This document shows, one piece after another, positions 3,207-38,023 of a stretch of 38,041 nt of DNA (positions within the stretch are counted from its first letter, which is position 1; every line of letters starts with the position of its first letter). The notes under the pieces were generated by a model. That model was not told the DNA's origin and searched no databases. It saw nothing but the letters and a program-made list of their open reading frames with translations. A program made the position numbers and the translations under genes. Source of the stretch: an uncultured Chromatiaceae bacterium (GTDB taxonomy: Bacteria > Pseudomonadota > Gammaproteobacteria > Steroidobacterales > GCA-2729495); NCBI GenBank assembly GCA_964587605.1, contig CAZPNN010000436.1:1-38041 (forward strand), read 5' to 3'.

Positions 3207-4703
3207 ATGGCGCCAACGACACACAGCAATTTATCCACAGCTTCCATTGCGGGCCATTCGGGCCTCAGTGGCATGGCGTTGTACCTCCCGCCTTACCGCG
3301 TGGACCTTCAACAGTGGTGCGAGTGGACTGGCGCCGACTGGCAGAAGATCCGGCGCGTGGTCGGCTCCGGCTTCAGGCTGCTGGGGCCACAGCACAGCGT
3401 CTACACGATGGCCGCGAACGCCCTGCTGCGCCTGATTCGCCAATACGACGTAGACCCCGCGCGCATCCGCTACCTGGCCCTCGGCACCGAATCCAGCACG
3501 GACAACTCCGCCGGCGCCATCATCGTCAAGGGCATGGTGGACGAGGCCCTGCGAGGCCTCGGGTTACCGCCAATCGCGCGCAACTGTGAAGTACCCGAAT
3601 TCAAGCACGCATGCCTCGCCGGCATCTATGCGATGAAGAGTGCGGTGCGGTTCCTGAACAACGACGGCGAGCACGGCGTTGCCATCGTCGTCTGCTCGGA
3701 CAAGGCGCTGTACGAAAGAGGTAGCAGCGGTGAGCCAACCCAGGGCGCGGGCGCCGTGGCGATGCTGCTGGAGTCGGAGCCTCGTATTGCCAGCATCAAT
3801 TTGCGCCACTCGGGGACAGCATCCGAGTACCGCGGGATCGATTTCCGCAAACCGCTCACGGGCCGGCTGAATGGCCATGCCCATTGCCTGGACATTCCGG
3901 TCTACAACGGTCGCTATTCGACCAATTGCTACGTGGATGAAGTGCGTCGCGCACTCGACGAACTGTACGCCCGCCGGCAGCTGGAACCAGCCGCCTATCT
4001 GCGCAGCGTCGAGGCCATATTCATGCACCGGCCCTACGCGCGGATGCCGGAAACGGGCTTTGGCGTCGCCTATCTGTTCGCCCTGGCACAGGGCGGTGTG
4101 ACCGATCAGGACGAGCTCGCCACCTACTGCGGAGGCGCTGGCGTGGCGATGGCGGATGTTCTTTCGGAAATGAACACCATGCCGGAGCTCAATGTGCTGG
4201 CCGTCAGCGAGCGCATCCAGGACGAGATATTTCCGTTGTGCATGGCTGTACTGAAGGTATTCCGGCAGAGCGAAGCATTCCAGACCAACATTCACGGAAA
4301 GATGGAACTCGGCACGGAGTGGATGCGCGAAGTCGGCAACCTCTACACCGGCGCTCTGCCAGCCTGGCTGGCCGCCGGGCTTTCAGATGCCTGCCACCGT
4401 GGTATTGACCTGGCCGGCCGGGAACTGCTGACGATTGGCTATGGCAGCGGGAACGCCGCCGACGCAATCCCGCTACAGGTCGTTCCCGGCTGGGAAGAGG
4501 CCGCGCGCCGAATCCACCTGGAAGATGCCTTGCGACCGGCCATCGATATCACGGCGGACCAATACCTCGCCCTGCGCGACGGTGTGGAACCTGCCGGCCT
4601 GAAGGTCGCACCGGCCGGGGAATTCGTGGTTGAGAGAATCGGCTCGCACGCCGGTCATGCCTTTCAGGATGCCGGCGTGGAGTATTACCGCTTCGTCCAC
4701 TGA
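3207..4703 (+). CDS. mvaS: Hydroxymethylglutaryl-CoA synthase family protein (mevalonate pathway)
   Basis: 498-aa ORF with thiolase-fold HMGS motifs: LGTESSTDNS, catalytic-Cys context EFKHACLAG, SGEPTQGAGAVAMLL, GYGSGNA. It is about 100 aa longer than typical bacterial MvaS. Confidence 0.75.
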   Translation: MAPTTHSNLSTASIAGHSGLSGMALYLPPYRVDLQQWCEWTGADWQKIRRVVGSGFRLLGPQHSVYTMAANALLRLIRQYDVDPARIRYLALGTESSTDNSAGAIIVKGMVDEALRGLGLPPIARNCEVPEFKHACLAGIYAMKSAVRFLNNDGEHGVAIVVCSDKALYERGSSGEPTQGAGAVAMLLESEPRIASINLRHSGTASEYRGIDFRKPLTGRLNGHAHCLDIPVYNGRYSTNCYVDEVRRALDELYARRQLEPAAYLRSVEAIFMHRPYARMPETGFGVAYLFALAQGGVTDQDELATYCGGAGVAMADVLSEMNTMPELNVLAVSERIQDEIFPLCMAVLKVFRQSEAFQTNIHGKMELGTEWMREVGNLYTGALPAWLAAGLSDACHRGIDLAGRELLTIGYGSGNAADAIPLQVVPGWEEAARRIHLEDALRPAIDITADQYLALRDGVEPAGLKVAPAGEFVVERIGSHAGHAFQDAGVEYYRFVH

Positions 4704-5815
4704 GCCGGCGCTGCCAGACCTCCCGCCGGTATCGCGCCACCGCGCACACTCAGTCCCGGCGCACACAGTTCGGCGTCCAGCACCGGGTAACCGGCGGCGG
4801 CATAATCCGCCCGCAGCGCCTGCTCCACGTCGCGGGAATCCGTCAGGGCAATCCCGAAATCCCCGCCACCAGCGCCGGATGGCTTGTAGACGGCGGCGTG
4901 CCGGCGTGCGATACCGCCCAGCTGTTCGTGGACCGGGGAAAAGATCCCGATGCCGGCTGATTCGTCCAGGCGACGAAGTCCGGACTCGTAACTGGCCACC
5001 GCGCCGAGCAGGCCACCGAGATCCTCCGCCCGCCACGCGGCAACCGCCTGCCCGGCCGTCGCCCCGAGGCGTTCCATGTGGCCGGAAAAACCTTCCGCGT
5101 TACGCTCGCGGAAGGCCCGCAATCGGCCCAGCATGGCCGGCGTGGAAGCGCTCTGGCCGGACCAGACAGCCACGAGTCGGAGCCGGCGGGGCCAGGCGAC
5201 GGGTAGCGCCTGCACAACCCGGGCATCCGTCACAGGCTGGCGACTGATACTGATGGCTACGGTTCCGCCGGTTATCGATGTAGCCACGTCGATGCCACTA
5301 CCGATGCCGCCCTGGAGACGACGGTGCGCTTCACAACAAATGTCGATCAGGTCCTGTCGGGCAAGAGCAGGCCCACCGGCAAAGCGCAACAGTGCGCCGG
5401 TCAGCGCCACAACAACCGCAGCACTCGAACCAAGGCCGAGCTTCATCCGCTGACCGTCCTTGCCGGCCTGGAAGAAGTCCGCAGTCACGAGTTCGATCTC
5501 ACAGGCCGGCAGCGCGGAAGCGCGTGGCAGCAGACCGCGTGCTGTCAGTATTTCCGCGCACACCTCCAGAGGCAGGCCGAAGGCGCCCGGCGAGTTCTTT
5601 TCCCAGCGGGGGCCACTATCGGATACCCAGCGGAAGCCGAAACGCTGGCCCGTGTCGGGAATCACGAGCTGATTGCCTTGCCCGGGAATCGACCGCAGCC
5701 GGGCCCGGGCCCGCACACCAACGGCGACCGCCAGCCCGGGCGCTCCCTCGAGTACGGCGTATTCACCCGCGAGAACCAGCTTGCCGGGAGCCTCTGCTTC
5801 AATCAGGGCTGCCAC
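4685..5815 (-). CDS. Phosphomevalonate kinase (ERG8-type GHMP kinase)
   Basis: N-terminal APGKLVLAGEYAVLEG is the PMK-type motif rather than the mevalonate-kinase GEHAV type. GHMP motif II is KLGLGSSAAVVVAL. The ORF runs up to ATG 5890, but that start would overlap mvaD by 92 nt. GTG 5815 (GAGGGG about 10 nt upstream) or GTG 5833 is more plausible. The 3' end overlaps the mvaS 3' end by 19 nt. Confidence 0.65.
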   Translation of the reverse strand: MAALIEAEAPGKLVLAGEYAVLEGAPGLAVAVGVRARARLRSIPGQGNQLVIPDTGQRFGFRWVSDSGPRWEKNSPGAFGLPLEVCAEILTARGLLPRASALPACEIELVTADFFQAGKDGQRMKLGLGSSAAVVVALTGALLRFAGGPALARQDLIDICCEAHRRLQGGIGSGIDVATSITGGTVAISISRQPVTDARVVQALPVAWPRRLRLVAVWSGQSASTPAMLGRLRAFRERNAEGFSGHMERLGATAGQAVAAWRAEDLGGLLGAVASYESGLRRLDESAGIGIFSPVHEQLGGIARRHAAVYKPSGAGGGDFGIALTDSRDVEQALRADYAAAGYPVLDAELCAPGLSVRGGAIPAGGLAAPAQWTKR

Positions 5816-6770
5816 GAAGGCGAGCCCCCTCACCCAGCGAACTGCGCAGGATTTGCAGCACCCCGGGTACAGCGCGGAGCGCTGCTGCAACGACCTCCAC
5901 GGCGGCCGGCAGACACACCGCCTTCACCTGAGGCCCGGCATCCACCGTGAAAAAGACGGCCACACCGTTCCGCCGCAACTCCTGAATACGCTGCAGGCAG
6001 GCCAGTGTTCCCGGCGTCCAGTACAGCAGCGGTGGTCTGGTGGTCATCATCACGGCGTGCATCTTGAGGCAATTGTGTTCGGCGAGTTCGGCCAGCGCCG
6101 CAAAGTCTCGCGCGCGAACCGCTGACAATCCGGCGTCCAGATCAGACGCATGGGTCTGCACCCAGGCGTCGTAATAGGGCGAGGTCGCCTCGCTCTGCGC
6201 CATGCCCTCGCGGGAGCTGGTGGCCTTTGGGCCTGCAGTGGTCACCGCCACCACGATCGAAAGCGGCCAGTCCGAGGGTGCTGCAACCTGCTCGCAGACC
6301 GTCGTCTCGCCCCGGTTGGTCAGCAACACGACACCGCCGAGCAGGGACCGCGGTGCCGAACCGGACCCGAGCCTGGCAATCTCGGCGAGGCGGTGGGGTG
6401 CAAGGTGCAGGCCCAGAGCGCCCGCGCCCGCCGTGACGAGGGCTGCGAAGCCCGAGGCGGATGAGGCCAGACCGGCGCCGGTCGGAAAGTCATTGTGCGA
6501 CCTGACCTCCGCGCAACTGGAAACACCAGCCTCCCGGCGCAGCAGATCCAGGCAGGCGGTTACGCGGCCGGTGGTTTCCGGATCCTCGTGTCCGTCCAGC
6601 ACCACCCGGTCGCGGTGCAGCGCAGGGTCGAAGCGCACGCTGGTTTCGGTGGATAGCCCGCCGAGCACCAGTGACAGCGAGCCGGTGGCCGGCAGATTGC
6701 CGACACGGGCCCGTTTGCCCCAGTACTTGATGAGGGCCACGTTAGGGTGCGCCACGGCGACCGCACGCAT
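5799..6770 (-). CDS. mvaD: Diphosphomevalonate decarboxylase
   Basis: Motifs VAHPNVALIKYWGKR and GLASSASGFAAL. The ORF extends to 6815, but ATG 6770 is preceded by GAGGAG at correct spacing. Confidence 0.8.
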   Translation of the reverse strand: MRAVAVAHPNVALIKYWGKRARVGNLPATGSLSLVLGGLSTETSVRFDPALHRDRVVLDGHEDPETTGRVTACLDLLRREAGVSSCAEVRSHNDFPTGAGLASSASGFAALVTAGAGALGLHLAPHRLAEIARLGSGSAPRSLLGGVVLLTNRGETTVCEQVAAPSDWPLSIVVAVTTAGPKATSSREGMAQSEATSPYYDAWVQTHASDLDAGLSAVRARDFAALAELAEHNCLKMHAVMMTTRPPLLYWTPGTLACLQRIQELRRNGVAVFFTVDAGPQVKAVCLPAAVEVVAAALRAVPGVLQILRSSLGEGARLRGSPD

Positions 6771-6857
6771 CGGGACTCCTCGCAAAGCCAACTTCTGCCC
6801 GGCCTCGTGCCGCAACGCTCGAGCGGTGGCCCTGGCCGCAATTATAGCCCCAGGCTT

Positions 6858-9523: not shown

Positions 9524-10213
9524 ATGTCCTTCATCCTGGATGCCCTGCGCAAGAGCGATGCTGAACGGCAGCGCACCGTAACGCCGGGACTCGCCGACGC
9601 TCGCTACGCCGCACCGCGCTCGCGGCGCACTATCTGGTGGCTGCCGATCCTGGTGGTTGTGCTTGCCGCGAACGGGGTCTTCATGGCAATGCAATGGTTT
9701 GACCGTAGTGCTAACGCGCCGGCGCCGGAACCCGTCGTTTCGATCCCGGCCCCAGATACGGAATCACCCCGACCGTCGGACATCCGCCCGCTGGCCCGCG
9801 AAAGTGAGTTCGGCGAACCACTGTTCGAGCCGCCCCTGGAGATTGAGCGCGATCCGCCGATGGTCCAGGAAATGGCCGAGCCGGCGCCGGCGGCGCCCGG
9901 GCCGGCACCTGAATTTGCCGCGGCCGCCGAGGTGCCGGCTGCCCCGGCCAGCGCCAAGCCATCGCGAATCATCGCGGGCAATGAACTGCCGACCACCGAG
10001 CAGTTGATCGGTTCCGGGACGCTGAACATTCCACTGCTGAATCTCGACCTGCACGTCTACAGCAATCAGCCTGCCAGCCGTTTTGTGGTCATCAACACCC
10101 GCAAGTACAAGGAAGGCGAACAACTTAAGGAAGGCCCGACAATTGAAAGCATCACCAGTAACGGGATTGTGCTGTCCAGTCAGGGCCGCCGGTTTACACT
10201 GCTCCGCAAGTGA
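9524..10213 (+). CDS. gspB: GspB/ExeB-like general secretion pathway protein B
   Basis: MSFILDALRKSDAERQR N-terminus, one TM segment, a Pro/Ala-rich linker and a conserved C-terminal domain. It lies directly downstream of exeA. Confidence 0.7.
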   Translation: MSFILDALRKSDAERQRTVTPGLADARYAAPRSRRTIWWLPILVVVLAANGVFMAMQWFDRSANAPAPEPVVSIPAPDTESPRPSDIRPLARESEFGEPLFEPPLEIERDPPMVQEMAEPAPAAPGPAPEFAAAAEVPAAPASAKPSRIIAGNELPTTEQLIGSGTLNIPLLNLDLHVYSNQPASRFVVINTRKYKEGEQLKEGPTIESITSNGIVLSSQGRRFTLLRK

Positions 10214-12045
10214 AACCTCACCTCCCCTTGCGTATCGCCTACCTCGATGGCCGTCGCTTTCAGCGACTGCTGCTCGGGGGCATCTCGCGTCTCATCGGTG
10301 AGCGGGGACACCTGGACCGGATCAACGTCTTTCCGGTACCCGACGGCGACACAGGCACCAATCTCGCACTGACCTTCACTGCCGTTGGCGAGAGGCTGAC
10401 AACCACCTCCACACGCCACGCCGGTGAACTGCTGACCGCGGCAGCCGACGCCGCGCTGGATGGTGCTCGGGGCAATTCCGGCGCCATCTTTGCGCAGTAC
10501 CTGCAGGGACTCAGCGAGTCGCTGGCCGGGCACGAGCGCGTCCGTCCCGAGGAGCTCGCGCTGGCGCTGGCCACCGCCGAAAACTTTGCCCGCAGCGCTA
10601 TCCAGAACCCGGCCGAGGGCACGGTACTGACCGTCATGCGCGACATTGCCGCCGCCGTCGCACCCGGCCAGCTGCCCGAGAAATCCGACTTTCCAACACT
10701 ACTGACGGCGCTGCTCAACCGGGCACGAGAAGCCGTCGCCACCACCCGGAAAACCCTGGCCTCAATGCGCAACGCCGGGGTTGAGGATGCGGGCGCGCGC
10801 GGCCTGCTCGTGCTGCTGGAGGGGATGGCCGACGCCCTGCAGCCGGGCCTCGCGCCCGCCATACCGGCTGTCGAGGACGGTGATCCCGCCGCCCGCAGCG
10901 CCGCCGATCTTGGTCACACCGGTCCGCTGGAACACCGCTATTGCACTGAGTGCCTGATCACGGGCCCGAAGGTCGACCGGGACGGCCTGCGGACCGAACT
11001 GGCCGGCATCGGCAGCAGCGTGGTCGTGGTCGGTGGAGCCACCAAGGCGCGCCTCCACGTGCACGTCAACGACCCGGTTGCTGCCTTCACCATCGCCCGG
11101 CGCTACGGGAAGGTCTCGGCGGAAAAGGCCGACGACATGGAGCGCCAGGAACGTTCGCTGAAGGCCGATGGGCGTCGCGTCGCAATCGTTGCGGACTCCG
11201 GCGCCGATTTGCCGCCCGCCATCTGGGACAAGTTCGGCATTCAGATGGTGCCGCTGCGCGTGAATTTTGGCAGCGAAAGCCACCTCGACAAGGTCGGCAT
11301 GACAGCCGCAGGCTTCTGGGCGGAACTCGGCAGGAATCCCGAGCATCCCAAGACCTCGCAGCCGCCGCCCGGTGATTTTCGCCGCGCCTACGAACTGCTC
11401 TCATCACACTTCGAACACGTTGTGGCAGTCATCCTCACGAGCCGGCTCAGTGGCACCTACCAGGCCGCGCAGTCCGCGGCCAGCCGGATGAGTAAACCCG
11501 GCCAGCTGACCGTTATCGACAGCAAGAACGTCTCGGTCGGGCACGGCCTGGTCATGCTGTGCGCGGCTGAGAATGCCCAGGCGGGCAAGTCCCCCGCGGA
11601 AGTTGTCGCGGCCGCCGAACGGTCGGCGGCCTGCACGCGCACTTACGGCGCGGTGCCGGATCTGAGCTACACAGTGCGGGGCGGCCGCATTCGGCAGCCG
11701 TGGCGCTGGCTGGCTCGCGCGTTGCCACTCAGTTTCCTGCTGGGCACCACCGCGAAGGGCGGCGTCAAGGTCCGGGGAATCCTGCCCCGGGGAGGTGACC
11801 TGGTGTCCGCGCTTCTACGCCTGGTCACCCAGGACCGGCTCCTGAAGTCCGGTTCGGCTTCGTTGCGCCTGGCCATCGCCCATGCCAACGCGCCAGACGC
11901 GGCAGAAGCGCTGCGGATTGCCTGCATCGCGGCCTTTCCGAACCTGGAGTCGATCCTGGTTGCGGATCTCGGCCCGGCCTACAGCGTGCACGCCGGACCG
12001 GGCACGCTCGCCCTGGCCGTTCAGGAATACCAGCCACCCGCCTGA
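10210..12045 (+). CDS. DhaL/DAK2-domain (FakA-like) and DegV (FakB-like) fusion protein
   Basis: N-terminal INVFPVPDGDTGTNL (DAK2/DhaL) motif. The middle region has YCTECLI...ARLHVHVNDP as in YloV/FakA proteins. The C-terminal ~280 aa begin VAIVADSGADLPP, which is DegV-like. The GTG start overlaps the gspB stop (GTGA). Confidence 0.75.
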   Translation: MKPHLPLRIAYLDGRRFQRLLLGGISRLIGERGHLDRINVFPVPDGDTGTNLALTFTAVGERLTTTSTRHAGELLTAAADAALDGARGNSGAIFAQYLQGLSESLAGHERVRPEELALALATAENFARSAIQNPAEGTVLTVMRDIAAAVAPGQLPEKSDFPTLLTALLNRAREAVATTRKTLASMRNAGVEDAGARGLLVLLEGMADALQPGLAPAIPAVEDGDPAARSAADLGHTGPLEHRYCTECLITGPKVDRDGLRTELAGIGSSVVVVGGATKARLHVHVNDPVAAFTIARRYGKVSAEKADDMERQERSLKADGRRVAIVADSGADLPPAIWDKFGIQMVPLRVNFGSESHLDKVGMTAAGFWAELGRNPEHPKTSQPPPGDFRRAYELLSSHFEHVVAVILTSRLSGTYQAAQSAASRMSKPGQLTVIDSKNVSVGHGLVMLCAAENAQAGKSPAEVVAAAERSAACTRTYGAVPDLSYTVRGGRIRQPWRWLARALPLSFLLGTTAKGGVKVRGILPRGGDLVSALLRLVTQDRLLKSGSASLRLAIAHANAPDAAEALRIACIAAFPNLESILVADLGPAYSVHAGPGTLALAVQEYQPPA

Positions 12046-12053
12046 AGCCGCTC

Positions 12054-12827
12054 CTACTCCCGGATCCGGAAGCCGCGATTCAGCATCAGGACGCACGTCC
12101 CGAACAGGACGGCGACACTCAGCACCATCATCAGATACGCGAAGCCGATCGGCACGTCGGACACACCGAGCATCCCGTAGCGGAACGCATTCACCAGGTA
12201 GAGGATCGGATTGAGCCGGGAGATCTGCTGCGCCAGGCCCGGCAACATCTCGATTGAGTAGAACACGCCGCCGAGATAAATCAGCGGCTGCAGGACGAAC
12301 GACGGGATGATGGTGACGTCGTCAAAGTTTCTGGCCACGATACCGTTGATAAGGCCGCCCAGTGAGAAGATGGCGGCACAGAGCAGGAAGACGGAGATTG
12401 TGATCAGAGGGTGCGCAAATGGCAGCGGAGTGAACAGCAGCGCAACGCCCGTCACCGCCAGCCCGACCAACACGCCGCGGATGATTCCTCCCGCCATGTG
12501 CCCGAGAACGATTGTCACATTCGCCATCGGCGCCACGAGCATTTCCTCGAGGTGGCGATTGATCTTCGCCGAGAAGAAAGACGACACCACGTTGCCATAA
12601 GCGTTGGTGATGACGGCCATCATGATCAGGCCGGGGGCTATGTACTGCTTGTAGTCAAAGCCGCCCATTTGCCCGATGCGGCTACCGATCAGGTTGCCGA
12701 AGATGACAAAGTACAGCGCCATGTTGATCGCCGGCGGCAGGATCGTTTGCGCCCAGATCCGCACGACGCGGTGGTACTCCTTCCGGGACAGGGTCGAGAG
12801 GGCGATGGCCTGTTGCCGAAGGCTCAC
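12054..12827 (-). CDS. ABC-2 type transporter permease (YadH-like)
   Basis: 257 aa with about 6 TM segments. It overlaps the upstream ATPase gene by 4 nt. Confidence 0.8.
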   Translation of the reverse strand: MSLRQQAIALSTLSRKEYHRVVRIWAQTILPPAINMALYFVIFGNLIGSRIGQMGGFDYKQYIAPGLIMMAVITNAYGNVVSSFFSAKINRHLEEMLVAPMANVTIVLGHMAGGIIRGVLVGLAVTGVALLFTPLPFAHPLITISVFLLCAAIFSLGGLINGIVARNFDDVTIIPSFVLQPLIYLGGVFYSIEMLPGLAQQISRLNPILYLVNAFRYGMLGVSDVPIGFAYLMMVLSVAVLFGTCVLMLNRGFRIRE

Positions 12828-13783
12828 CGCGGCGCCCCTTTCGACGACTGTCTGCCCGCCGGCGCGGACGGCGCGTTGCGCTCCGTCAGCGTCAGGAACA
12901 GCTCTTCAAGGCGATTGGCCTTGTTGCGCAGGCTTAAGATCTGCACGCCGGCACCAGAGAGCGCCGCAAAGAGCTCGTTCACACTCCGGGTGCGCGGCAT
13001 GGCCACCTCAAGTTCCTGCGGCCCGTTAAGCCGGATCTCGAAACCCGGCAACGACGGCAAGACGTGCACCGGCTCCCGCGGCGTCAGCAGGAATACTTCC
13101 TCGCTGAGCTTGCCCAGCACACCGGTCATTGGCCCCTGCTCGATAACCCGTCCGTGGTCGATGATCGCGATATTCCTGCAAAGGTTCTCCGCCTCTTCCA
13201 GGTAGTGCGTGGTCAGGATGATCGACGTACCGGCGGCATTGAGTTCCCGCAGGAAATCCCACATGGAACGTCGGATCTCGATATCCACGCCCGCGGTGGG
13301 CTCATCCAGGATCAGCAGGCGCGGCTCGTGCACCAGCGCCCGGGCAATCATCAGCCGGCGCTTCATACCGCCGGAAAGCGTCCGTGCGGTGTCATTGCGC
13401 CTGTCCCACAACTGCAGCTGCCGGAGGCACACCTCGGCGCGCTGACGGGCACGGGCGGGGGTCAGGCCATAGAAGCCCGCCTGGTTGACGACGATGTTAT
13501 TGACCTTGTCCCACAGGTTGACGTTGAGCTCCTGGGGAACCACGCCAATGGCGTTCTTGACCGCGTTCAGATCGCGATCGAGGTCGTGGCCAAAAACGCG
13601 AACCGTGCCGCTGGTCTTGGTCACCAGCGAGGTGACGATGCCGATCAGGCTGGTCTTGCCGGCCCCGTTGGGCCCGAGCAGTGCGAAGAAGTCGCCGGTG
13701 GCCACCGCAAGGTCGATTCCGTCCAGCGCGCGAACGCCGTTGGCGTAAACCTTGGTGAGCCTCCGAACCGAGAGCGCGTGCAT
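12824..13783 (-). CDS. ABC transporter ATP-binding protein (YadG-like)
   Basis: Walker A GPNGAGKTS, signature LSGGMKRRL, Walker B LLILDEPT. The ORF extends to 13819, but MHALSVRRLTKVY (ATG 13783) is the typical N-terminus. Confidence 0.85.
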   Translation of the reverse strand: MHALSVRRLTKVYANGVRALDGIDLAVATGDFFALLGPNGAGKTSLIGIVTSLVTKTSGTVRVFGHDLDRDLNAVKNAIGVVPQELNVNLWDKVNNIVVNQAGFYGLTPARARQRAEVCLRQLQLWDRRNDTARTLSGGMKRRLMIARALVHEPRLLILDEPTAGVDIEIRRSMWDFLRELNAAGTSIILTTHYLEEAENLCRNIAIIDHGRVIEQGPMTGVLGKLSEEVFLLTPREPVHVLPSLPGFEIRLNGPQELEVAMPRTRSVNELFAALSGAGVQILSLRNKANRLEELFLTLTERNAPSAPAGRQSSKGAPR

Positions 13784-13831
13784 GGCGCGGCATTGTGCCT
13801 GCTTGCTGCGGCGACACAACGTTGGTGTCTT

Positions 13832-14407
13832 TCAAGTGCGGCTGATGAGCGTGAGCTGGATGAGAGACAGGCGCGTGGCCGTGAGTACCGGGCCAGCCGG
13901 AATGGTGGCGGCCCGCACCAGATCGGGCCACAGGCGCGGATGCCGACAAAACCGCGCCTCAAGGCACTCGGAGGCAACCGCGGCGGTGCGTTGCAGATCG
14001 CGGAAAGCGGCACTGCTGAGATGCTCCACGGTCAGGCTTCCGGGCCCGATGCACAGGGCCGCCAGCAGGCGATCCTGCCGGGCTGTGTGCCACAGCCAGG
14101 CCAGCAGGGAGGCGGCGAACAGGCGCGCGGCATCCGCCTGCGGCCCACGGGCCGCCAGCAACGGCGGTTCCGCTACACCCGGCGCCGTCAACCGCGGGGG
14201 AAGTACCGTAAAGGCCGCCAGCAAACAGGGCGTGGCGGCGACGGCCTCGAGCGCCGCCGGGGCCAGCTGCCGGAGCCGCTGCCGTACGGCCGGGTCCAGG
14301 CCGTAAGCCGCTCCGGGGCTGCCATCGGCACGGATCAGCTCCAGAAACTCGCGGTTGAACTCGTGAATTTCCCGGCGAACCTGTGAATCGGGCCATTTGC
14401 TCGCCAT
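13832..14407 (-). CDS. Hypothetical protein, tentatively FlhD-like (possibly two tandem FlhD-like repeats)
   Basis: The probable start is ATG 14407; the 5' ORF extension crosses the AT-rich promoter region. YGLDPAVRQRLRQLAPAALEAVAATPCLLAAF resembles E. coli FlhD [34 protein letters not shown]. A second similar stretch is GPGSLTVEHLSSAAFRDLQRTAAVASECLEARF. The gene is divergent from the FlhC-like gene and lies 48 nt upstream of the ABC exporter genes. Confidence 0.45.
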   Translation of the reverse strand: MASKWPDSQVRREIHEFNREFLELIRADGSPGAAYGLDPAVRQRLRQLAPAALEAVAATPCLLAAFTVLPPRLTAPGVAEPPLLAARGPQADAARLFAASLLAWLWHTARQDRLLAALCIGPGSLTVEHLSSAAFRDLQRTAAVASECLEARFCRHPRLWPDLVRAATIPAGPVLTATRLSLIQLTLISRT

Positions 14408-14442
14408 TTGCACACTTCCCCCGGGTGACCAGACTGTACTAT

Positions 14443-14464
14443 AAATGGTCCGAATCGACCAAAT
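14443..14464. promoter_or_regulatory. Operator-like site 1: AAATGGTC-N6-GACCAAAT
   Basis: Inverted repeat (core TGGTC/GACCA) in the AT-rich divergent intergenic region. It is adjacent to a minus-strand TATAGT (14438-14443). Confidence 0.4.
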
Positions 14465-14483
14465 AAACATTCTTATCACCATG

Positions 14484-14505
14484 ATTTGGTCCAAATGGAC
14501 CAAAT
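14484..14505. promoter_or_regulatory. Operator-like site 2: ATTTGGTCC-N4-GGACCAAAT (perfect 9-bp arms)
   Basis: Perfect palindrome arms seen directly. It shares the TGGTC..GACCAAAT core with site 1, with centres about 41 bp apart. It lies just upstream of the FlhC-like RBS and start. Confidence 0.45.
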
Positions 14506-14526
14506 CTATTGAAAGTCGAGGGAAAC

Positions 14527-15078
14527 ATGCGTGCCACAGACAACCGCTACGCGGGCGAACGGGAGCGCTTCGACCTGGCCATCCGGATGATCGGGCACGA
14601 GGCCCGGACGGGCACGATCCGCCAGTGCACGGGATTCACCGAGGACCGGATCCGGAAGATTTACGCCAGTTACTTCCCGGGTGGCGACAACGTGCGTCGG
14701 CGCCGTGGCAAGACCCCCAGCCAGATCGCCCCGTTTGTCAGCTCGGCCCGCCGGCAGGGCGAAGCCAGCCTGCTGATCGGCCTGTTCGTCGTTTCCGAAG
14801 TCATGCAGCCGGACGGGGACAGCCGCACGCTGCGGGCCGTCGCCGAGACGGGGGTCAAGCTGGGCAACGGGCTGTGCGATGCCTTCGAGGCATACCGGGC
14901 GATGCACCCGGAGCCGCAGCTGTCCTTCGAATGGACCTGGAATCTGTACCGGTGCGTGGTGTCACGGCGGGAACTGCAGCTCGCCTGGTGCGCGCTGTGC
15001 GAAGGGCCGTACGTGCAGGATGCCTACGCCCTCGACTACCGGCGCTGCCCGTTTTGCGAAGTGAAAGATCATGCGTAA
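14527..15078 (+). CDS. FlhC-family transcriptional regulator (non-flagellar context)
   Basis: [33 protein letters not shown] aligns with E. coli FlhC [65 protein letters not shown] aligns with [31 protein letters not shown]. The zinc-site pattern CxxC-N15-CxxC is conserved. ATG 14527 is preceded by GAGGGA; the ORF track starts at TTG 14509. Confidence 0.7.
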   Translation: [183 protein letters not shown]

Positions 15079-15087
15079 CCTGACCGG

Positions 15088-16020
15088 ATGATTCGCGTCA
15101 CCTTCACGGGCTCGGGTGTGGAGCGCTTTTCCGCGCTGCGCCAGCAGCCGGAGGCACTCGCGGCGGCCTTTGCCGAACCGGAGGCGCGTTTCGTGCCGAT
15201 CTGGCAATCGCGCTGCCTGCTTCGCGACGGCGCTATCGCGGTCTGCCAGCGGGAAGAGATCGAGGTTTTGGTCACCAGCCCCGAGGGGGCGGTTTTTCTC
15301 GGGCGGCGCGAGGGGCGCGCGCTCTTTGCTGTCGAGGTCCGCGGCGACACACCACCGGCCAATCTCCCGGCCGAGGGCTTTCGTGGCCTGCGCGAAGTCG
15401 TCGGCGAGGTGAGCGCGGCCGACGCGGCGCTGCTGGCCTACGCCCGCGCCATGATTCTCTGGCAGGAGCGCCACCGGCACTGCGGTGTGTGCGGCGCGCC
15501 GAACCGGGCTACCGAGGGTGGCTTTGTCATGGCCTGCACAGGCGACGGCTGCGACCACAAGAGCTTTCCCCGCATCGACCCCGCCGTAATCGTGCTGGTA
15601 CACCGGGGCGAGCACTGCCTGCTCGGCCGCCAGGCCACCTGGCCCGAGGGCCGTTTTTCCACGATCGCCGGCTTCGTCGAACCCGGCGAGTCGCTGGAAG
15701 ACGCCGTAGCCCGGGAAGTCCACGAGGAAACAAATATCCGGGTCGGTGAGTGCCGCTACCTCGCGTCGCAACCCTGGCCGTTCCCGGCCGCGATGATGCT
15801 GGGTTTTCACGCCGAGGCGCTGAGCGAGGACATCCGCTTCAATGATGGCGAACTCGTGGAAGCCCGCTGGCTCACGCGACAGGAGATTCGAGCGGGTGCC
15901 ATCGGCCTGCCGCCGCGCGAGTCAATTGCCTTCCAGTTAATTGAACACTGGTTTGACAGTGACAAGGGTAAGCCCTTGGCCAGCCTTGGTTTCGACAGCC
16001 CAATGTTCCGCCGGCCCTGA
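15088..16020 (+). CDS. nudC: NAD+ diphosphatase / NADH pyrophosphatase
   Basis: Zinc ribbon CGVCGAPN...CTGDGC followed by Nudix box GFVEPGESLEDAVAREVHEETNI. It starts 9 nt after the FlhC-like stop. Confidence 0.85.
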   Translation: MIRVTFTGSGVERFSALRQQPEALAAAFAEPEARFVPIWQSRCLLRDGAIAVCQREEIEVLVTSPEGAVFLGRREGRALFAVEVRGDTPPANLPAEGFRGLREVVGEVSAADAALLAYARAMILWQERHRHCGVCGAPNRATEGGFVMACTGDGCDHKSFPRIDPAVIVLVHRGEHCLLGRQATWPEGRFSTIAGFVEPGESLEDAVAREVHEETNIRVGECRYLASQPWPFPAAMMLGFHAEALSEDIRFNDGELVEARWLTRQEIRAGAIGLPPRESIAFQLIEHWFDSDKGKPLASLGFDSPMFRRP

Positions 16021-16030
16021 CGCTGAACCC

Positions 16031-16792
16031 ATGTGCCTGATCGCCATCGCCTGGAACGCCCATCCGCGTTACCCACTGATCCTGCTCGGTAACCGCGACG
16101 AGTTTCATCAGCGGCCTAGCGTGGCGGCGGACTGGTGGCCGGAAGCACCGGACGTGTTCGGCGGCCGGGACCTTAAGGCCGGTGGGAGCTGGCTCGGCGT
16201 GAGCCGAAGCGGTCGGCTGGCCGTGGTCACGAACAACCCGCTGCGGCCCCCGGCAGCTGACCGTCACCTGAGCCGTGGCGCGCTGGTTCGTGACTGGCTT
16301 ACGGGCACGTCCGCAGCCGGTCCGTTCCTCGACGCCGTAGACAGGGACGAAGCGCGGTACGCGGGCTTCAGCCTGCTGGTTGGCACACTGGATCAGGGAC
16401 TTGAGGGCATCGTCGCGCCGGCCGGCACGCTTGGTGCGCGCTGGCAGTTGCCCGCCGGTATCACGGCACTCTCGAATTCCCCGCGGGAAACGCCGTGGCC
16501 GAAGGTCGGCTGGTTACAGCGCGCGCTCGAAGATTACCTGCGCCGACCCGAGGTCGAGACGGAAGAACTGCTGGCCCTGGCTGGCCGGCGCATGCCGGTG
16601 GCAGAGCCGGCGGGCGACACCCCGCAAGACCGGGCCCGCGTCACGCCGTTTGTCACCGGGACCGACTACGGCACGCGCGCGGCCACCCTGATCCTGGCCA
16701 ATGCGCGTGGCGGCTGGCAGTGCATCGAGCGGCGCTTCGGCCCGGGTGGTGTCCCGGCCGGCGAGTCGCAGGGGCGTCACTCGTCGCCGTAG
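16031..16792 (+). CDS. NRDE-family (TANGO2-like, DUF833) protein
   Basis: N-terminus is MCLIAIAWNAHPRYPLILLGNRDEF. ATG 16031 lies after the nudC stop; the ORF-track 5' extension overlaps nudC. Confidence 0.75.
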   Translation: MCLIAIAWNAHPRYPLILLGNRDEFHQRPSVAADWWPEAPDVFGGRDLKAGGSWLGVSRSGRLAVVTNNPLRPPAADRHLSRGALVRDWLTGTSAAGPFLDAVDRDEARYAGFSLLVGTLDQGLEGIVAPAGTLGARWQLPAGITALSNSPRETPWPKVGWLQRALEDYLRRPEVETEELLALAGRRMPVAEPAGDTPQDRARVTPFVTGTDYGTRAATLILANARGGWQCIERRFGPGGVPAGESQGRHSSP

Positions 16793-19261: not shown

Positions 19262-20317
19262 ATGAAAACCATTATCGCCGACAAGATCGCCTCCGTTGCC
19301 CAGCACCTGAATCTCAAGCGGGAGCTGCGCGTGAGCGCGGAGCTGCCCTGCGAGGAGGGCGTGCTGATCGCCGCCGAGGTGCTAAATAACAAGAGCAACT
19401 ACAACCAGCTGGAGCTCACCAGCGGGCGCATGGCCGTGGTCAAGAAGGGCGACATCGTGGTCGGCGCGCTCGGCCACCGGAAGGCGCTGTTCGGCTACTC
19501 CGGCCACATTCCCGGGACGCTCGCCGTCGGCGACACGCTTCAGCTGCTGAACATGGGTGGCGTCATCGGCGTTTGCGACTCGATCAATGCCAGCTTCGGC
19601 CAGCCCTTCGATGTGCGCGTGCTCGGCACCGTGCTCGACTTCCCCTTCCTCGGCGAGCGCATCGGCGTGCCGGCACGGGTCGGCATGGAGAAGCTTGTTG
19701 TTGACCCACCCCTGGATACGCGGGGCGTGCCGGTCGTGGCCATCGCGGGGACGTGCATGAACTCGGGCAAGACGGCGGCGGCCTGTGCCATCGTCAGCCG
19801 GCTGCGGCACCACGGGCACACGGTCGATGTCTTCAAGGCCACTGGCGTGGCGCTCCGCCGGGACATCCTCGCCATGGAGGACGCCGGAGCACGGTCGTCG
19901 CTGATCTTTTCCGACTTCGGCGTGGTCTGCACGACGGGCAAGAACGGTCCCGCGGTCACCCGCATGATGCTGACCAGGCTCGCCGCCCAGAAACCGGACG
20001 TGATCGTCTACGAACTCGGCGATGGCATTCTCGGCGCCTACGGTGTGGAGGCCATCCTGCGTGACGAAGGGATAAGGGCCTCCCTTCACTGCCTTGTGCT
20101 GTGCGCCAATGATCCGGTTGCCGCCTGGGGTGGCGTGAAACTGTTGCGGGAGGATTTCGGCATCGAGCCTGCCATCGTCACGGGGCCGGCCACCGACAAC
20201 GACGTGGGCAAGGAGATCATCGTCCAGCGCATGGGCGTGAAGGCGATCAACGCGGTCACCGAGTCCATGCAGATCGGCGACGCCGTCGCCTCGCACCTTA
20301 AGCTTAAGCTGGCATGA
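19262..20317 (+). CDS. Uncharacterised protein with a DTBS/CobQ-like P-loop domain, embedded in the arg operon
   Basis: 351-aa ORF with protein-like composition; the antisense ORF is Arg-rich junk. Walker A-like GTCMNSGKT (aa 163-171), Walker B-like DVIVYELGDG (aa 246-255), and an unrecognised beta-rich N-terminal ~150 aa. The stop overlaps the argC start (ATGA). Confidence 0.7.
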   Translation: MKTIIADKIASVAQHLNLKRELRVSAELPCEEGVLIAAEVLNNKSNYNQLELTSGRMAVVKKGDIVVGALGHRKALFGYSGHIPGTLAVGDTLQLLNMGGVIGVCDSINASFGQPFDVRVLGTVLDFPFLGERIGVPARVGMEKLVVDPPLDTRGVPVVAIAGTCMNSGKTAAACAIVSRLRHHGHTVDVFKATGVALRRDILAMEDAGARSSLIFSDFGVVCTTGKNGPAVTRMMLTRLAAQKPDVIVYELGDGILGAYGVEAILRDEGIRASLHCLVLCANDPVAAWGGVKLLREDFGIEPAIVTGPATDNDVGKEIIVQRMGVKAINAVTESMQIGDAVASHLKLKLA

Positions 20318-35821: not shown

Positions 35822-36136
35822 TCAGGACGCCAGCTTCAGGCCCAGGATACCGGCCACGATCAGGCCGATGCAGGCGAGCCTGAGTGCGCTGGCCGGCTCC
35901 GCGAACAGCAGGATACCGAGCGCGGCGGTACCGACGGCGCCGATCCCGGTCCAGACAGCGTAGGCGGTGCCAAGGGGGATGGACTTGAGGGCCAGGGCCA
36001 GCAGCCAGAAGCTGCCGATCATGGCAAGCACGGTCAAAACAGTCGGTACTGGCCGGCTGAAACCATCGGTGTACTTGAGGCCGACTGCCCAGCCAATCTC
36101 GAACAGACCGGCGATGGTGAGAAAAATCCAGGCCAT
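35822..36136 (-). CDS. sugE: SMR-family guanidinium/quaternary-ammonium exporter SugE/Gdx
   Basis: 104 aa, near-colinear with E. coli SugE ([38 protein letters not shown]). ATG 36136 is preceded by GGAAGGG. Confidence 0.9.
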
Positions 36137-36244
36137 GGCATTACCCTTCCGCAGTCGCGTGCAGCTGCAGCGTGAGCGCAACAGAACGGGGTTTTGCGCT
36201 CGTGATAGAGACTGAAGCTTATGTATAATTTGGCTTGCGCGTAA

Positions 36245-36264
36245 GGCCACCGGGTTTATAGTCG
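36245..36264 (+). repeat. 20-nt motif GGCCACCGGGTTTATAGTCG, copy 2 of 2
   Basis: Matches 125-144 at 18 of 20 positions. TTGCGC (36235-36240)-N17-TATAGT (36258-36263) forms a plausible promoter for the small + strand ORF. Confidence 0.5.
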
Positions 36265-36307
36265 TCATAACTAAAAAACCACACTCCGACACAGAAGAAG
36301 AACAACA

Positions 36308-36511
36308 ATGTCTGCCCCAAAGCACCCCGGGGATGCGCACCCCGCCCATGTGATCGACTCGGATATCGACTTCGCCGGCTACGACCCGTACATCGTTGCG
36401 ATTACCGGCGGTGGTCCCGCCAGCCTTCGAAATGACAGGCGCGGTGCCGATTCGGCGGCTGAAAGCCGCAAGGTGAAGTTAATGACCTGGCTGCGCGAGC
36501 ACGGCAGCTAG
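36308..36511 (+). CDS. Hypothetical small protein (67 aa)
   Basis: High GC3 codon pattern consistent with coding. There is no clear SD and no family recognised. Confidence 0.35.
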
Positions 36512-36945
36512 CCGGCCGCCTTCCGCATCGCATCCAGCGCTGCGCGGGCAAGAAACCCAGAACGGGTCTCTCCCTGCTTGCGCGCATGGGCATCAACCGC
36601 ACGAAGAATCCGCTGCGGCAACGTAATGTTGATCCGAGCGGCCTTATCTCCAAGCTCGCTGACATCGATATCGACAATTGCCCAGGTCCAGCCGCGTTAG
36701 CTGCGTTTCTTCCGCAATTGTTCGATAGCGGCCGGTTTCGGGAAGGGCTTGCCATCATCCAGTAAGCCCTCCAGATGAAGCAAAATGGCCTCTCGTGCGT
36801 TGGTCAGCGCTTCGTCCAGCGTATCCCCTGCCGAAAAGCAGCCAGGCAAGTCAGGTACAACGACCCCGTACGCGTGTTTGGTATCGCCCTCACCAAGCCT
36901 TTGCCCAGATCCTTCTTTGGATGCTGATGACGTCGACCTGGTTGG
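36508..36945 (-). pseudogene. hicB: hicB-family antitoxin pseudogene (in-frame TAA, no start codon)
   Basis: My own translation of the minus strand gives HAYGVVVPDLPGCFSAGDTLDEALTNAREAILLHLEGLLDDGKPFPKPAAIEQLRKKRS, then TAA at 36697-36699. The same frame continues [62 protein letters not shown], i.e. a HicB fold followed by an RHH domain. There is no ATG, GTG or TTG between the upstream in-frame TAG (36946-36948) and the conserved core. Confidence 0.65.
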
Positions 36946-36950
36946 CTACC
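36882..36950 (-). pseudogene. hicA: hicA-toxin remnant
   Basis: Another minus frame reads GSQPGRRHQHPKKDLGKGLVRAI, matching the HicA C-terminal consensus (..HP.KDL..G.....I). That frame then runs into the hicB N-terminal coding region instead of terminating. The upstream part is not recognisably intact, and the 5' limit is uncertain. Confidence 0.4.
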
Positions 36951-37090
36951 ACTGAGGGGTGATTGCAATGGCCATGAAGAACCCGCTGCACATGAGCAGT
37001 TTCGTGTGGCGGGAGATGTCCCGCCAGAAACTGGCGGCGCAGTCCACGGCAACCACGGCCAAGATCGCAACGGCCGACGGCAGGGGCTGA

Positions 37091-38023
37091 TCAGGGACCG
37101 CGCACCACCGACATGATCTGGTTCATGTCGAGCGTGCTCGCCTTCTGCTCAATCTGGGGCAGGTACTGCTGCTGCATCGTCCGCCCCTGACTGGTCAGTT
37201 CCGTGAAGGTTTGCTTGAGCACAGCATTGCTCATGACGCGGCCACCGGCGTAGTAGCGCTTGGCCAGCTGCCCCAGGGCGTAGGTTGTGGCAAAGGAAAA
37301 GGCGGCCCCCGTGGCCGTCCGCCCGATTGATCCGACCATGCCCCCGGCCGCCTTGCCGAGAATCCCGCCCAGCAGTTTGCGGCCGATGCCCTCGAGGTAC
37401 TGGCCAGTGAGGCCAACGCCCAGGGTGGCCAGCAGGTCCTTGATATGGCCCCGGTCCAGCTCAAAGCCGTGGGCCTGGCCGATCCTGTAAACGAGCTTCA
37501 TCTGCAACGGAATAATGGCCAGCGACGCCATGGACTGGGGCAACAGCTCCAGCGCGCCGTTGAGGATCGATGCATTGAGGATGCTCCGGTCCAGTTCGGC
37601 GTCGGAGATCCTGGCAGGCCCGGCGACGGCCGCGGCCTCAGTTGCAGCCAGCGGTGCGGTAGCCATGGCATCGGCCTCCGCAGCAACCATGATCATGGCC
37701 GGTTGCCCCAGCCCCAGAGCAGCGCCGAGCGTAGCGAGAAACTGGTTTTCGGCGTCATTGCGCAGTCCATCTGCATCGCAGACGCCAATCGCTATCTCGT
37801 AAGCCAGCTGGCGCAGGGCCGGCGTGGACAACGCCGCGGTGGCTGACGCGACGTCAACGCGACCCAGCAGCACATCCTGATAGACAGCCGCGACGTTGAG
37901 ATCACCGCCCAGGGACTCGGCAACCTGGCGCACTTCATCCCGCTCCCGATTGTCCTTCTGGCTATCGGCGAAGGCCGCCAGCATGGCGATGCTCAGCAAT
38001 GCCTTCATCTCGGTCGGGTTCAT
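37091..38023 (-). CDS. TerB-like N-terminal domain / DUF697-like C-terminal domain protein
   Basis: The N-terminus LSIAMLAAFADSQKDNRERDEVRQVAESLG...LAYEIAIGVCDADGLRNDAENQFLATL is TerB-like. The C-terminus LAIIPLQMKLVYRIGQAHGFELD...GVGLTGQYL resembles DUF697/YcjF-type domains. Confidence 0.55.
   Translation of the reverse strand: MNPTEMKALLSIAMLAAFADSQKDNRERDEVRQVAESLGGDLNVAAVYQDVLLGRVDVASATAALSTPALRQLAYEIAIGVCDADGLRNDAENQFLATLGAALGLGQPAMIMVAAEADAMATAPLAATEAAAVAGPARISDAELDRSILNASILNGALELLPQSMASLAIIPLQMKLVYRIGQAHGFELDRGHIKDLLATLGVGLTGQYLEGIGRKLLGGILGKAAGGMVGSIGRTATGAAFSFATTYALGQLAKRYYAGGRVMSNAVLKQTFTELTSQGRTMQQQYLPQIEQKASTLDMNQIMSVVRGP

Follow-up and report, generated by a model that had tools for sequence, protein, structure and literature searches.

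The window analyzed here is a stretch of 38,041 nt from contig CAZPNN010000436.1 (assembly GCA_964587605.1) of an uncultured Chromatiaceae bacterium (Gammaproteobacteria; Steroidobacterales; GCA-2729495). Two divergent genes, coding for proteins referred to as the C and D subunits, are located in this window, together with the following genes and features:

12054..12827, minus strand: ABC-2 exporter permease of the YadH type, at the end of the D-subunit operon
12824..13783, minus strand: ABC exporter ATPase of the DrrA/YadG type (Pfam ABC_tran, E 1.7e-31; NCBIfam drrA subfamily, E 8.6e-70; synteny)
13832..14407, minus strand: D subunit, 191 aa, starting at an ATG (MASKWPD...) within a longer open frame (13832-14503)
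14408..14526: control region of 119 bp between the divergent genes, common to both start codons
14437..14443: invariant TACTATA, a -10-like hexamer on both strands (TACTAT on the plus strand, TATAGT on the minus strand)
14445..14464: candidate operator site 1, imperfect palindrome ATGGTCCGAATCGACCAAAT
14483..14506: candidate operator site 2, perfect 11+11 palindrome GATTTGGTCCA-AA-TGGACCAAATC, 41 bp downstream of site 1
14527..15078, plus strand: C subunit, 183 aa, starting at an ATG (MRATDNRY...) within a longer open frame (14509-15078)
15088..16020, plus strand: nudC, NAD(+) diphosphatase (NCBIfam NF001299, 252.7 bits, cut-off 158; synteny)
16031..16792, plus strand: TANGO2/NRDE-family gene (Pfam TANGO2, E 7.7e-53, match from residue 31 of the open frame)

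The exporter permease matches Pfam ABC2_membrane (E 1e-34) and, over its full length, NCBIfam NF011648 (PRK15066; 370 bits, cut-off 225). Its position is kept in the related loci whose sequence extends that far. The end of the ATPase ORF (12824) and the annotated start of the permease ORF (12827) overlap by 4 nt, and 48 nt separate the stop of the D gene (13832) from the ATG of the ATPase (13783). On the other side, 9 nt separate the stop of the C gene (15078) from the ATG of nudC (15088), which is probably part of the same transcript as the C gene. The nudC product shows Pfam NUDIX, NUDIX-like and Zn_ribbon_NUD matches. The likely ATG of the TANGO2/NRDE gene lies 10 nt past the nudC stop, and this gene is found in many, not all, related loci. 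A first-pass annotation had read both the 48-nt and 9-nt gaps and the identity of the neighbors (an ABC-2 exporter, NudC and an NRDE protein) from the letters; the coordinates and the Pfam/NCBIfam matches agree with it. The GC content is flat across the locus of the pair.

The 183-aa protein encoded on the plus strand has the FlhC fold. It matches the Pfam FlhC profile (PF05280) with an E-value of 6.7e-7 and 29.7 bits, above the gathering score of 27, over residues 11-179 (profile positions 9-162 of 173). The Cys4 zinc site, C155-x2-C158-x15-C174-x2-C177, is invariant in 39 homologs, and its four cysteines align with the FlhC cysteines of 8j56_C and 2avu_E. The MRATDNRY start is common to all homologs and a 21-residue N-terminal segment is invariant. 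The C-family profile finds FlhC chains in the PDB with E-values of 9e-6 and 1.5e-3. The AlphaFold model (pLDDT 84) was compared with Foldseek, giving E-values of 3.7e-6 to 1.3e-5 and TM-scores of 0.68-0.80 over about 175 columns; the best matches are 8j56_C (E 3.7e-6, TM 0.69/0.78) and 2avu_E (E 1.3e-5), and FlhC chains are the only significant ones. The first-pass annotation had described this protein as FlhC-like along its length, zinc site included, and both the profile and the structure comparison that it had proposed bear this description out. Against the flagellar FlhC equivalog (NCBIfam NF009365), the C subunit reaches 26.7 bits, with a cut-off of 216.

The D protein of the window, taken individually, has no Pfam match at E-values up to 1 and no NCBIfam match. 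Among 64 D-family members, 26 individually match Pfam FlhD (PF05247), with a best E-value of 1e-7; the six matches given in full and the precomputed ones lie below or near the gathering score. A clearer relation appears at the family level. The profile of a diverse 64-member alignment (A4), built from an exhaustive HMMER search, finds the FlhD chains 8j56_A (E 5.9e-9), 5hxg_B (8.6e-6) and 1g8e_A (1.6e-5) in the PDB, and hhalign relates the D family to the FlhD alignment with 84% probability. The N-terminal half (about residues 7-84) and the C-terminal half (about 95-180), joined by a low-confidence linker (about 69-88), each match FlhD when compared alone (P 7e-7 and 8e-6, respectively). They also match each other (P 2.6e-5), the reversed-sequence controls for these comparisons giving P values of 0.13-0.77. 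Because both halves match FlhD as well as each other and the reversed controls are negative, the D subunit is, as judged from sequence profiles, a tandem duplication of the FlhD fold. A comparison of the halves with the C family gave no support for FlhC-like halves (P 0.06 and 0.45). Instead of a single homodimerizing FlhD domain of about 105-120 aa, the D subunit thus has 191 aa and two FlhD-like halves.

With an alignment of the closest 39 D homologs (A1), the FlhD signal is only weak (E 0.008 in the PDB, 70% probability in hhalign) and an internal repeat is not apparent. This negative outcome is misleading because the alignment is shallow; the diverse alignment reversed it. The AlphaFold model of the D subunit is compact (pLDDT 82.8, pTM 0.82). 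Its Foldseek E-values against the PDB are not significant; a good target-normalized TM-score is reached with FlhD chains alone (up to 0.73, the output not stating which half is aligned). The first-pass annotation had noticed an FlhD-like stretch and a second, weaker copy in this protein, and had guessed at a fused pseudo-dimer. Both copies are real at the profile level and the guess is supported by the match between the halves. Of the FlhD checks that it had suggested, the single-protein PF05247 search and the Foldseek E-values came out negative, and the family profile and the target-normalized TM-score positive.

About 90 chromosomal loci of uncultured Gammaproteobacteria contain the divergent pair, in which the D gene is followed by a YadGH-type ABC-2 exporter and the C gene usually by nudC. 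Based on HMM scans, a D gene divergently adjoins the C gene in 88 of 91 C-gene loci, the three exceptions being two contig edges and one plasmid. The divergent order, which the first-pass annotation had pointed out, is the rule in every chromosomal locus in which both flanks of the C gene are covered by sequence, and it persists at 21% D identity and in other distant members. A neighborhood of gspAB, fakA-degV, the exporter, the pair, nudC and the argR-arg cluster is present in most of the approximately 80 species-level genomes examined, and recurs down to 47% C identity and 21% D identity. The chromosomal branch as a whole was found in 149 species-level genomes, and the D subunit falls into 610 clusters at 50% identity. 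Both proteins are almost always annotated as “hypothetical protein”.

Pfam scans of the other ORFs of at least 150 aa that were accepted as genes in the 38-kb window revealed no flagellar, integrase, relaxase or T4SS/conjugation families; six ORFs in these scans had no match at all. The tRNA and Rfam scans of the window found nothing. The non-flagellar, non-ICE context proposed by the first-pass annotation thus holds for the window, and the wider inspection that it called for leads to housekeeping synteny in the species-level genomes mentioned above. A tblastn search of 72,556 plasmids found no close relatives of the C subunit (E 0.04 or worse), and a scan of viral contigs found no relatives. 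A recent mobile-element origin was rejected, since there are no close plasmid or viral relatives. In three plasmid loci (L084-L086), the C/D pair lies inside conjugation modules.

The intergenic region contains elements that are conserved together with the genes. In 66 of 84 upstream regions there is an exact ACTATA, usually 89-91 nt ahead of the ATG of the C gene, and TACTATA may represent a -10 element. A consensus promoter scan of positions 13700-15200 did not find a sigma-70 consensus promoter; terminator-like matches in the same interval were uninformative. Relative to the ATG of the C gene, site 1 is located at -81 or -83 in each of the 18 close loci, and site 2 at -40 or -42 in 17 of them, with L017 as the exception. 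The two distances are paired as -81/-40, or as -83/-42 in L020. The TGG...CCA core of site 1 is conserved over the anchored loci, and a TACTATA-WATGG...CCAW core is kept across subclades. With zero or one mismatch, only the two intergenic sites match the operator in the 38-kb window. With two mismatches, the matches outside the intergenic region in the window and in 17 close loci are at chance level (12-30 expected in shuffles). Targets farther away in these genomes, flagellar genes included, are conceivable.

If TACTATA serves as the -10 element, site 1 would fall between the -10 and -35 elements of the D promoter and coincide with the start site of a C promoter. Such a location between -10 and -35 would be repressor-like or MerR-like, unlike the class II position reported for SetCD. 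The geometry of the candidate operators is ambiguous between activation and repression. They could also belong to another regulator. ArgR was considered as a binder solely from proximity, and the palindrome is probably unlike an ARG box. The operator, TGGTCC-N4-GGACCA with AT-rich flanks, is presumably also unlike the FlhDC box.

The C and D subunits probably constitute a two-subunit FlhDC-family transcription factor that is fixed in the chromosome and autoregulates both divergent operons, a reading in which we have reasonable confidence. As the D polypeptide consists of two FlhD-like halves, one D chain would take the place of the FlhD dimer of FlhD4C2, resulting in a complex of the D'2C2 type. 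This heteromer would bind the two candidate operators in the 119-bp region and could from there co-ordinately autoregulate the two operons, one comprising D and the YadGH-type ABC-2 exporter and the other comprising C, nudC and the TANGO2-family gene. In FlhDC, SetCD, AcaCD and BisDC, both subunits are needed and act at promoters (PMC4344509; PMC4207636; PMC7423338). SetCD-dependent promoters have no recognizable -35 element (PMC4344509).

The pair shares several properties with FlhD4C2 of Enterobacterales and Burkholderiales (PDB 2AVU, 8J56). The C subunit has the whole FlhC fold with its Cys4 zinc site, the FlhD fold makes up the D subunit, and the two presumably form a heteromeric DNA-binding factor that reads inverted repeats. 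It differs in that D is a 191-aa tandem protein whereas FlhD is a 116-aa monomer that dimerizes, and in that the genes are divergent whereas flhD is directly upstream of flhC and co-transcribed with it. In addition, no flagellar context is present here and the C subunit stays below the NCBIfam FlhC cut-off. SetCD of the SXT/R391 ICEs, AcaCD of the IncA/C plasmids and SgaCD of SGI1 are likewise distant FlhDC-family pairs, and they require both subunits (PMC4344509; PMC4207636). The long D subunit is shared with AcaCD, and an alignment with a 201-aa plasmid D protein runs collinearly through both halves. However, the genes of these systems are in tandem and overlapping, from D to C, within conjugation modules, and activate tra, xis and int genes, whereas the divergent pair described here adjoins an exporter and nudC, and is chromosomal and vertically inherited. 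Sequence similarity to the mobile-element subunits is marginal, with hhalign P values of 2e-4 (D) and 2e-5 (C).

BisDC of ICEclc is a two-subunit activator with positive autoregulation, in which BisC (Pfam DUF2857) was reported to be FlhC-like, whereas BisD resembles ParB and lacks an FlhD domain (PMC7423338). In the family described here, five D members have weak DUF2857 matches, which are located in the C-terminal half of D and not in the C subunit; the D subunit contains no ParB domain, and BisDC, unlike this pair, belongs to an ICE. The design also resembles that of divergently encoded local efflux-pump regulators such as TetR/TetA, with a regulator located back-to-back with an exporter operon and, in the region between them, palindromes overlapping putative core promoter elements. 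According to a 2026 study, the YadGH exporter of E. coli pumps out macrolides and is activated by MarA (PMC13462070). Unlike TetR/TetA and the control of YadGH by MarA, the regulator family here is a two-gene FlhDC type, and, unlike in TetR/TetA, one subunit gene probably shares its transcript with the pump and the other with nudC.

Other explanations of the locus were weighed against the same data. It is rather unlikely that the two proteins work separately, C as a stand-alone zinc-ribbon regulator of nudC and D as a factor that assists or regulates the ABC exporter (such as a substrate sensor or an anti-activator). Each of the genes does stand first in its operon, divergence is much faster in the D family (30-40% identity for D and 50-60% for C within the same genomes), and FlhC alone has been reported to bind DNA. 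The genes are nevertheless adjacent and co-inherited in every chromosomal locus that can be judged, and they have a common control region with paired candidate operators. The known members of both families are moreover obligate partners (PMC7423338; PMC4207636).

That the pair is instead a divergent but true FlhDC, encoded away from the flagellar genes it controls and merely autoregulated by the local operators, is improbable. The protein families are the same, and binding of E. coli FlhDC to many non-flagellar targets has been reported (PMC9962212). Against it stand the low score for the FlhC equivalog, the 191-aa tandem D protein compared with the 116 aa of FlhD, the divergent gene order in place of an flhDC operon, the window devoid of flagellar genes and a deep synteny with the exporter and nudC instead of mot, che or fli genes. 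In Gammaproteobacteria outside the Enterobacterales, FleQ/FlrA-type proteins are furthermore the usual flagellar master regulators. Very unlikely is a domesticated or remnant SetCD/AcaCD-type activator in a decayed island. The long D subunit does resemble those of mobile elements, AcaD having 22.8 kDa (PMC4207636), and the 201-aa D protein of the Vibrio plasmid pLH80-1 can be aligned with the family from end to end (P 1.9e-4; reversed 0.58). But instead of lying inside an ICE, a plasmid or an island beside transfer genes, the pair sits in a housekeeping neighborhood that recurs in most of about 80 species-level genomes, at a locus with flat GC content and in a window without an integrase, relaxase, T4SS gene or tRNA, and its only plasmid matches are very weak, with none among viral contigs. 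Domestication long ago, at the base of the clade, is possible; the present-day function would stay the same.

The preferred reading of an autoregulating two-subunit factor can be extended, more tentatively and as one possibility, to a third branch of the FlhDC family, vertically inherited, neither flagellar nor mobile and with a housekeeping role, in which a tandem-D D'2C2 complex would control the pump, NudC and TANGO2. The pair would act from two operators overlapping the core promoters of the divergent operons and might be a repressor or a dual regulator, not a pure activator. This branch would extend over a large gammaproteobacterial clade whose uncultured members come from environmental metagenomes, and its tandem-D architecture would explain the long D subunits of conjugative elements, AcaD and probably SetD.

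In the literature searched, the FlhDC family appears in two roles only, as flagellar master switch and as activator of conjugative elements (SetCD, AcaCD, SgaCD, BisDC). The works found under “FlhDC-like” all concern mobile elements, except one on Campylobacter flagellar ncRNAs. With a pair that is part of the core chromosome and has an exporter and an NAD-cleaving enzyme as neighbors, the family would have a third use. Its functional range would be broader if it included a chromosomal branch linked to an efflux-type ABC exporter and an NAD-cap/NADH hydrolase. The annotation of the family can be improved as well, because its proteins are almost always labeled as hypothetical. With 119 bp, two candidate operators and two small proteins, the locus offers a compact system for studying DNA reading of the FlhDC type. 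The tandem FlhD leads to a structural rule that can be tested, namely that a single D' chain corresponds to one FlhD2 dimer, and this rule may explain the size of the AcaD-type subunits of resistance plasmids.

Sequence comparison and structure models support reading the locus as a FlhDC-family pair that is divergently arranged, has a tandem D subunit in a single chain and occupies a conserved chromosomal context, neither flagellar nor mobile. The region 13832-15078 consists of two divergent ORFs with 119 bp between them, in which two palindromes were identified:

13832-14407, - strand: D gene, 191-aa FlhD-like protein, N-terminus MASKWPD
14445-14464: site 1, putative operator, palindrome ATGGTCCGAATCGACCAAAT
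14483-14506: site 2, putative operator, perfect 11+11 palindrome GATTTGGTCCA-AA-TGGACCAAATC
14527-15078, + strand: C gene, 183-aa FlhC-like protein, N-terminus MRATDNRY

The D gene has a ribosome-binding site, GGGGGAAG, 7 nt before its start, and the C gene has GAGGG 5 nt before its own; the MRATDNRY N-terminus is common to all 38 aligned C homologs. On the minus strand, the ATG of an ABC ATPase gene (13783) lies 48 nt past the D gene, and the end of this ORF and the annotated start of an ABC-2 permease ORF have 4 nt in common. The YadH-type model NF011648 matches this permease over its full length. On the plus strand, nudC lies 9 nt past the C gene and is followed after a further 10 nt by a TANGO2/NRDE-family gene. 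The first-pass annotation had described the divergent ORFs, the 48-nt and 9-nt gaps and the exporter, nudC and NRDE neighbours, all correctly on re-check; its observation as a whole is confirmed and its interpretation supported, with functional claims that rest on computation.

The plus-strand protein had been proposed to resemble FlhC along its length, and profiles and model agree that it is a FlhC-fold protein. Pfam FlhC (PF05280) covers almost the entire protein (29.7 bits; gathering score 27; E 6.7e-7), and the PDB chains matched by a 39-homolog C profile were all FlhC (8j56_C, E 9e-6; 2avu_E, 1.5e-3). FlhC chains were also the only significant Foldseek matches of the AlphaFold2 model (pLDDT 84, pTM 0.81), with E-values of 3.7e-6 to 1.3e-5, a probability of 1.00 and TM-scores of 0.68-0.80 over ~175 columns. 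The CxxC-N15-CxxC zinc site is present, its four cysteines (C155, C158, C174, C177) being invariant among the 39 homologs. Because it scores only 26.7 bits against the cut-off of 216 for the NCBIfam flagellar FlhC equivalog, C is judged not to be an orthodox flagellar FlhC. Residues 17-50 (window 14527-14680) are almost invariant in these homologs, which are otherwise down to 57% identical. This segment corresponds by alignment to the N-terminal helices in FlhC; it is a candidate surface for reading DNA or contacting D, in keeping with the invariant TGG/CCA operator core.

Pfam and NCBIfam gave no match to the D protein alone, and the profile built from its 39 closest relatives had FlhD as its top PDB match, weakly (E 0.008). 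In an exhaustive HMMER search, this profile retrieved 610 representatives (50%-identity clusters) at E <=1e-3; among the 150 listed, nearly all are 190-250 aa long with a full-length match. Although the single protein lacks a Pfam match, the proposed resemblance to FlhD holds for the diverse family: a profile of 64 members (20-68% identity) gave far better matches, to the FlhD chains 8j56_A (E 5.9e-9), 5hxg_B (8.6e-6) and 1g8e_A (1.6e-5). Pfam FlhD was matched individually by 26 of the 64 members, and hhalign against an enterobacterial FlhD alignment gave 84% probability.

The D alignment was split into halves at a low-confidence linker. The N-half matched FlhD (P 7e-7), the C-half matched nearly full-length FlhD (positions 11-95, P 8e-6) and the halves matched each other (P 2.6e-5), with reversed-sequence controls all at P 0.13-0.77; these results support the earlier guess of a "fused pseudo-dimer of the FlhD fold". 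AlphaFold gave a compact model (pLDDT 82.8, pTM 0.82), in which each half combines one long helix and further short ones with a single strand (64-66 and 149-151). Foldseek with this model gave no significant E-values, and good TM-scores (0.51-0.73, target-normalised) were limited to FlhD chains. Alignment and model thus support a tandem FlhD with both halves of the FlhD fold. One D chain may replace the FlhD dimer, giving a D'2C2 complex. Pfam DUF2857 was matched weakly by five of the 64 members (best E 3.3e-5; e.g., residues 97-144 of the family member P0443), within the C-terminal FlhD-like half. The same domain characterises BisC of ICEclc, a protein reported to be FlhC-like (PMC7423338); given where the similarity lies in D, it may be worth re-examining how BisC relates to FlhC or FlhD.

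The pair is a vertically inherited chromosomal module. Relatives were found in 149 species (one genome scanned per GTDB species); the 80 listed genomes are all metagenome-derived or uncultured, labelled mostly Gammaproteobacteria, Chromatiales and Woeseiaceae. The order permease <- ATPase <- D, C -> nudC occurs in nearly all of the 80 retrieved loci with sequence there, down to 47% C identity. TANGO2 and argR often come next after nudC, which is absent or displaced in a few loci (e.g., L029, L035, L056, L075, L082, L083). The two genes are strictly co-inherited. HMM scans placed D divergently beside C in 88 of 91 loci, which comprise all the chromosomal ones with sequence on both flanks; the other three are two contig edges and one plasmid. 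The divergence noted earlier, as against the usual tandem order, is thus the rule. D evolves much faster than C; a 21%-identical D homolog has the same neighbourhood, and further distant members likewise retain a divergent partner.

Pfam was run on the other window ORFs of 150 aa or more, taken as genes (six without a match). They encode core metabolism and housekeeping: a fadE-type acyl-CoA dehydrogenase, mevalonate-pathway genes, ispA, gspA/gspB, a FakA-DegV fusion, argR with an arginine-biosynthesis cluster, polA, an EngB-type GTPase, cytochrome c and DsbA. As first remarked, no flagellar, integrase, relaxase or T4SS families were detected among these ORFs across the 38-kb window, and the related chromosomal loci show exporter-pair-nudC synteny instead. 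A genomic island was considered and rejected on the conserved chromosomal synteny, the lack of relatives in the viral contigs scanned and the plasmid search, which gave very weak matches only. GC content is flat across the locus, and the window holds no tRNAs or Rfam matches.

Several other features of the window were observed. A 611-aa protein (10210-12045, +) combines a FakA-like N-terminus (Dak2 and FakA middle domain) with a complete DegV (FakB-like) domain and looks like a fatty-acid kinase fused to its binding subunit; the position of its gene beside the exporter is conserved in many of the related loci. HMG-CoA synthase, two GHMP-family kinases and diphosphomevalonate decarboxylase adjoin ispA at 3207-6815, a mevalonate-pathway cluster, unusual for Gammaproteobacteria, also present in the related loci L001 and L089. 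A 351-aa ORF without Pfam match (19262-20317, +), between argG and a semialdehyde dehydrogenase (argC-type) gene, may be an uncharacterised conserved arginine-cluster member; the related locus L088 has a 353-aa gene without Pfam match at the equivalent place. GC falls to 0.578 at 36001-37000 (~0.65 elsewhere), overlapping a stretch without long annotated ORF (36349-37091).

The palindromes start 41 bp apart, about four helical turns, and are the only 0-1-mismatch operator matches in the window. Relative to the C-gene ATG they lie at -81/-40 in 18 close loci (L020: -83/-42; in L017, site 2 is below the match threshold), other matches being at chance level. Across subclades, an invariant TACTATA, usually 89-91 nt ahead of the C start, is followed by WATGG(T/G)C-N5-6-G(A)CCAWAWAA; distant subclades have one long palindrome instead, or two CCATATATGG-type sites. 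TACTATA offers a -10-like hexamer on either strand, and neither putative promoter has a good -35. If TATAGT is the D-promoter -10, site 1 spans ~-14 to -33 and the centre of site 2 is near -63; if TACTAT is that of C, the transcription start falls within site 1. A -35 is likewise missing from SetCD-dependent promoters, whose box abuts the -35 position (PMC4344509), whereas the putative operators here are nearer the core promoter. At 14392-14411, two copies of the direct repeat GCCATTTGC lie 11 bp apart and span the D start codon; CATTTG at this start is also found in most close relatives, and the repeat may simply be conserved D N-terminus and RBS context.

FlhDC, SetCD, AcaCD and BisDC act as heteromers (PMC4344509, PMC7423338, PMC4207636). 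By analogy, C and D would form a heteromer that binds the paired operators and co-ordinately autoregulates two operons as its predicted regulon, D with the exporter and C with nudC and TANGO2. According to a 2026 report, E. coli YadGH is an ABC efflux pump for macrolides that MarA activates (PMC13462070); since the permease here is YadH-type, the module resembles a locally regulated efflux locus.

The pair probably works like a FlhDC-family heteromeric regulator outside every described subgroup. It differs from flagellar FlhDC in failing the FlhC equivalog, the single-domain FlhD definition and the flhDC operon layout, from SetCD, AcaCD and SgaCD in not residing on mobile elements, and from BisDC in that BisD is ParB-like and D is not. 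In architecture, D most resembles the long D subunits found on mobile elements, such as AcaD (22.8 kDa; PMC4207636). The MobI(A/C)-type Vibrio parahaemolyticus plasmid pLH80-1 encodes a 201-aa D protein (L086:2346-2951) upstream of its FlhC-family gene. This protein is collinear with the tandem-FlhD family over both halves (P 1.9e-4; reversed control 0.58), each of which FlhD matches weakly; other plasmid D proteins are shorter (115 and 158 aa). Long D subunits of conjugative elements may thus also be tandem FlhD duplications, which was not found stated in the literature searched on these systems. In databases, the C and D proteins of this family are annotated as hypothetical, and the searchable literature discusses "FlhDC-like" proteins almost only for mobile elements, a Campylobacter ncRNA paper being the exception. 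This third context, together with the tandem D, is informative for work on FlhDC or SetCD-type regulators.
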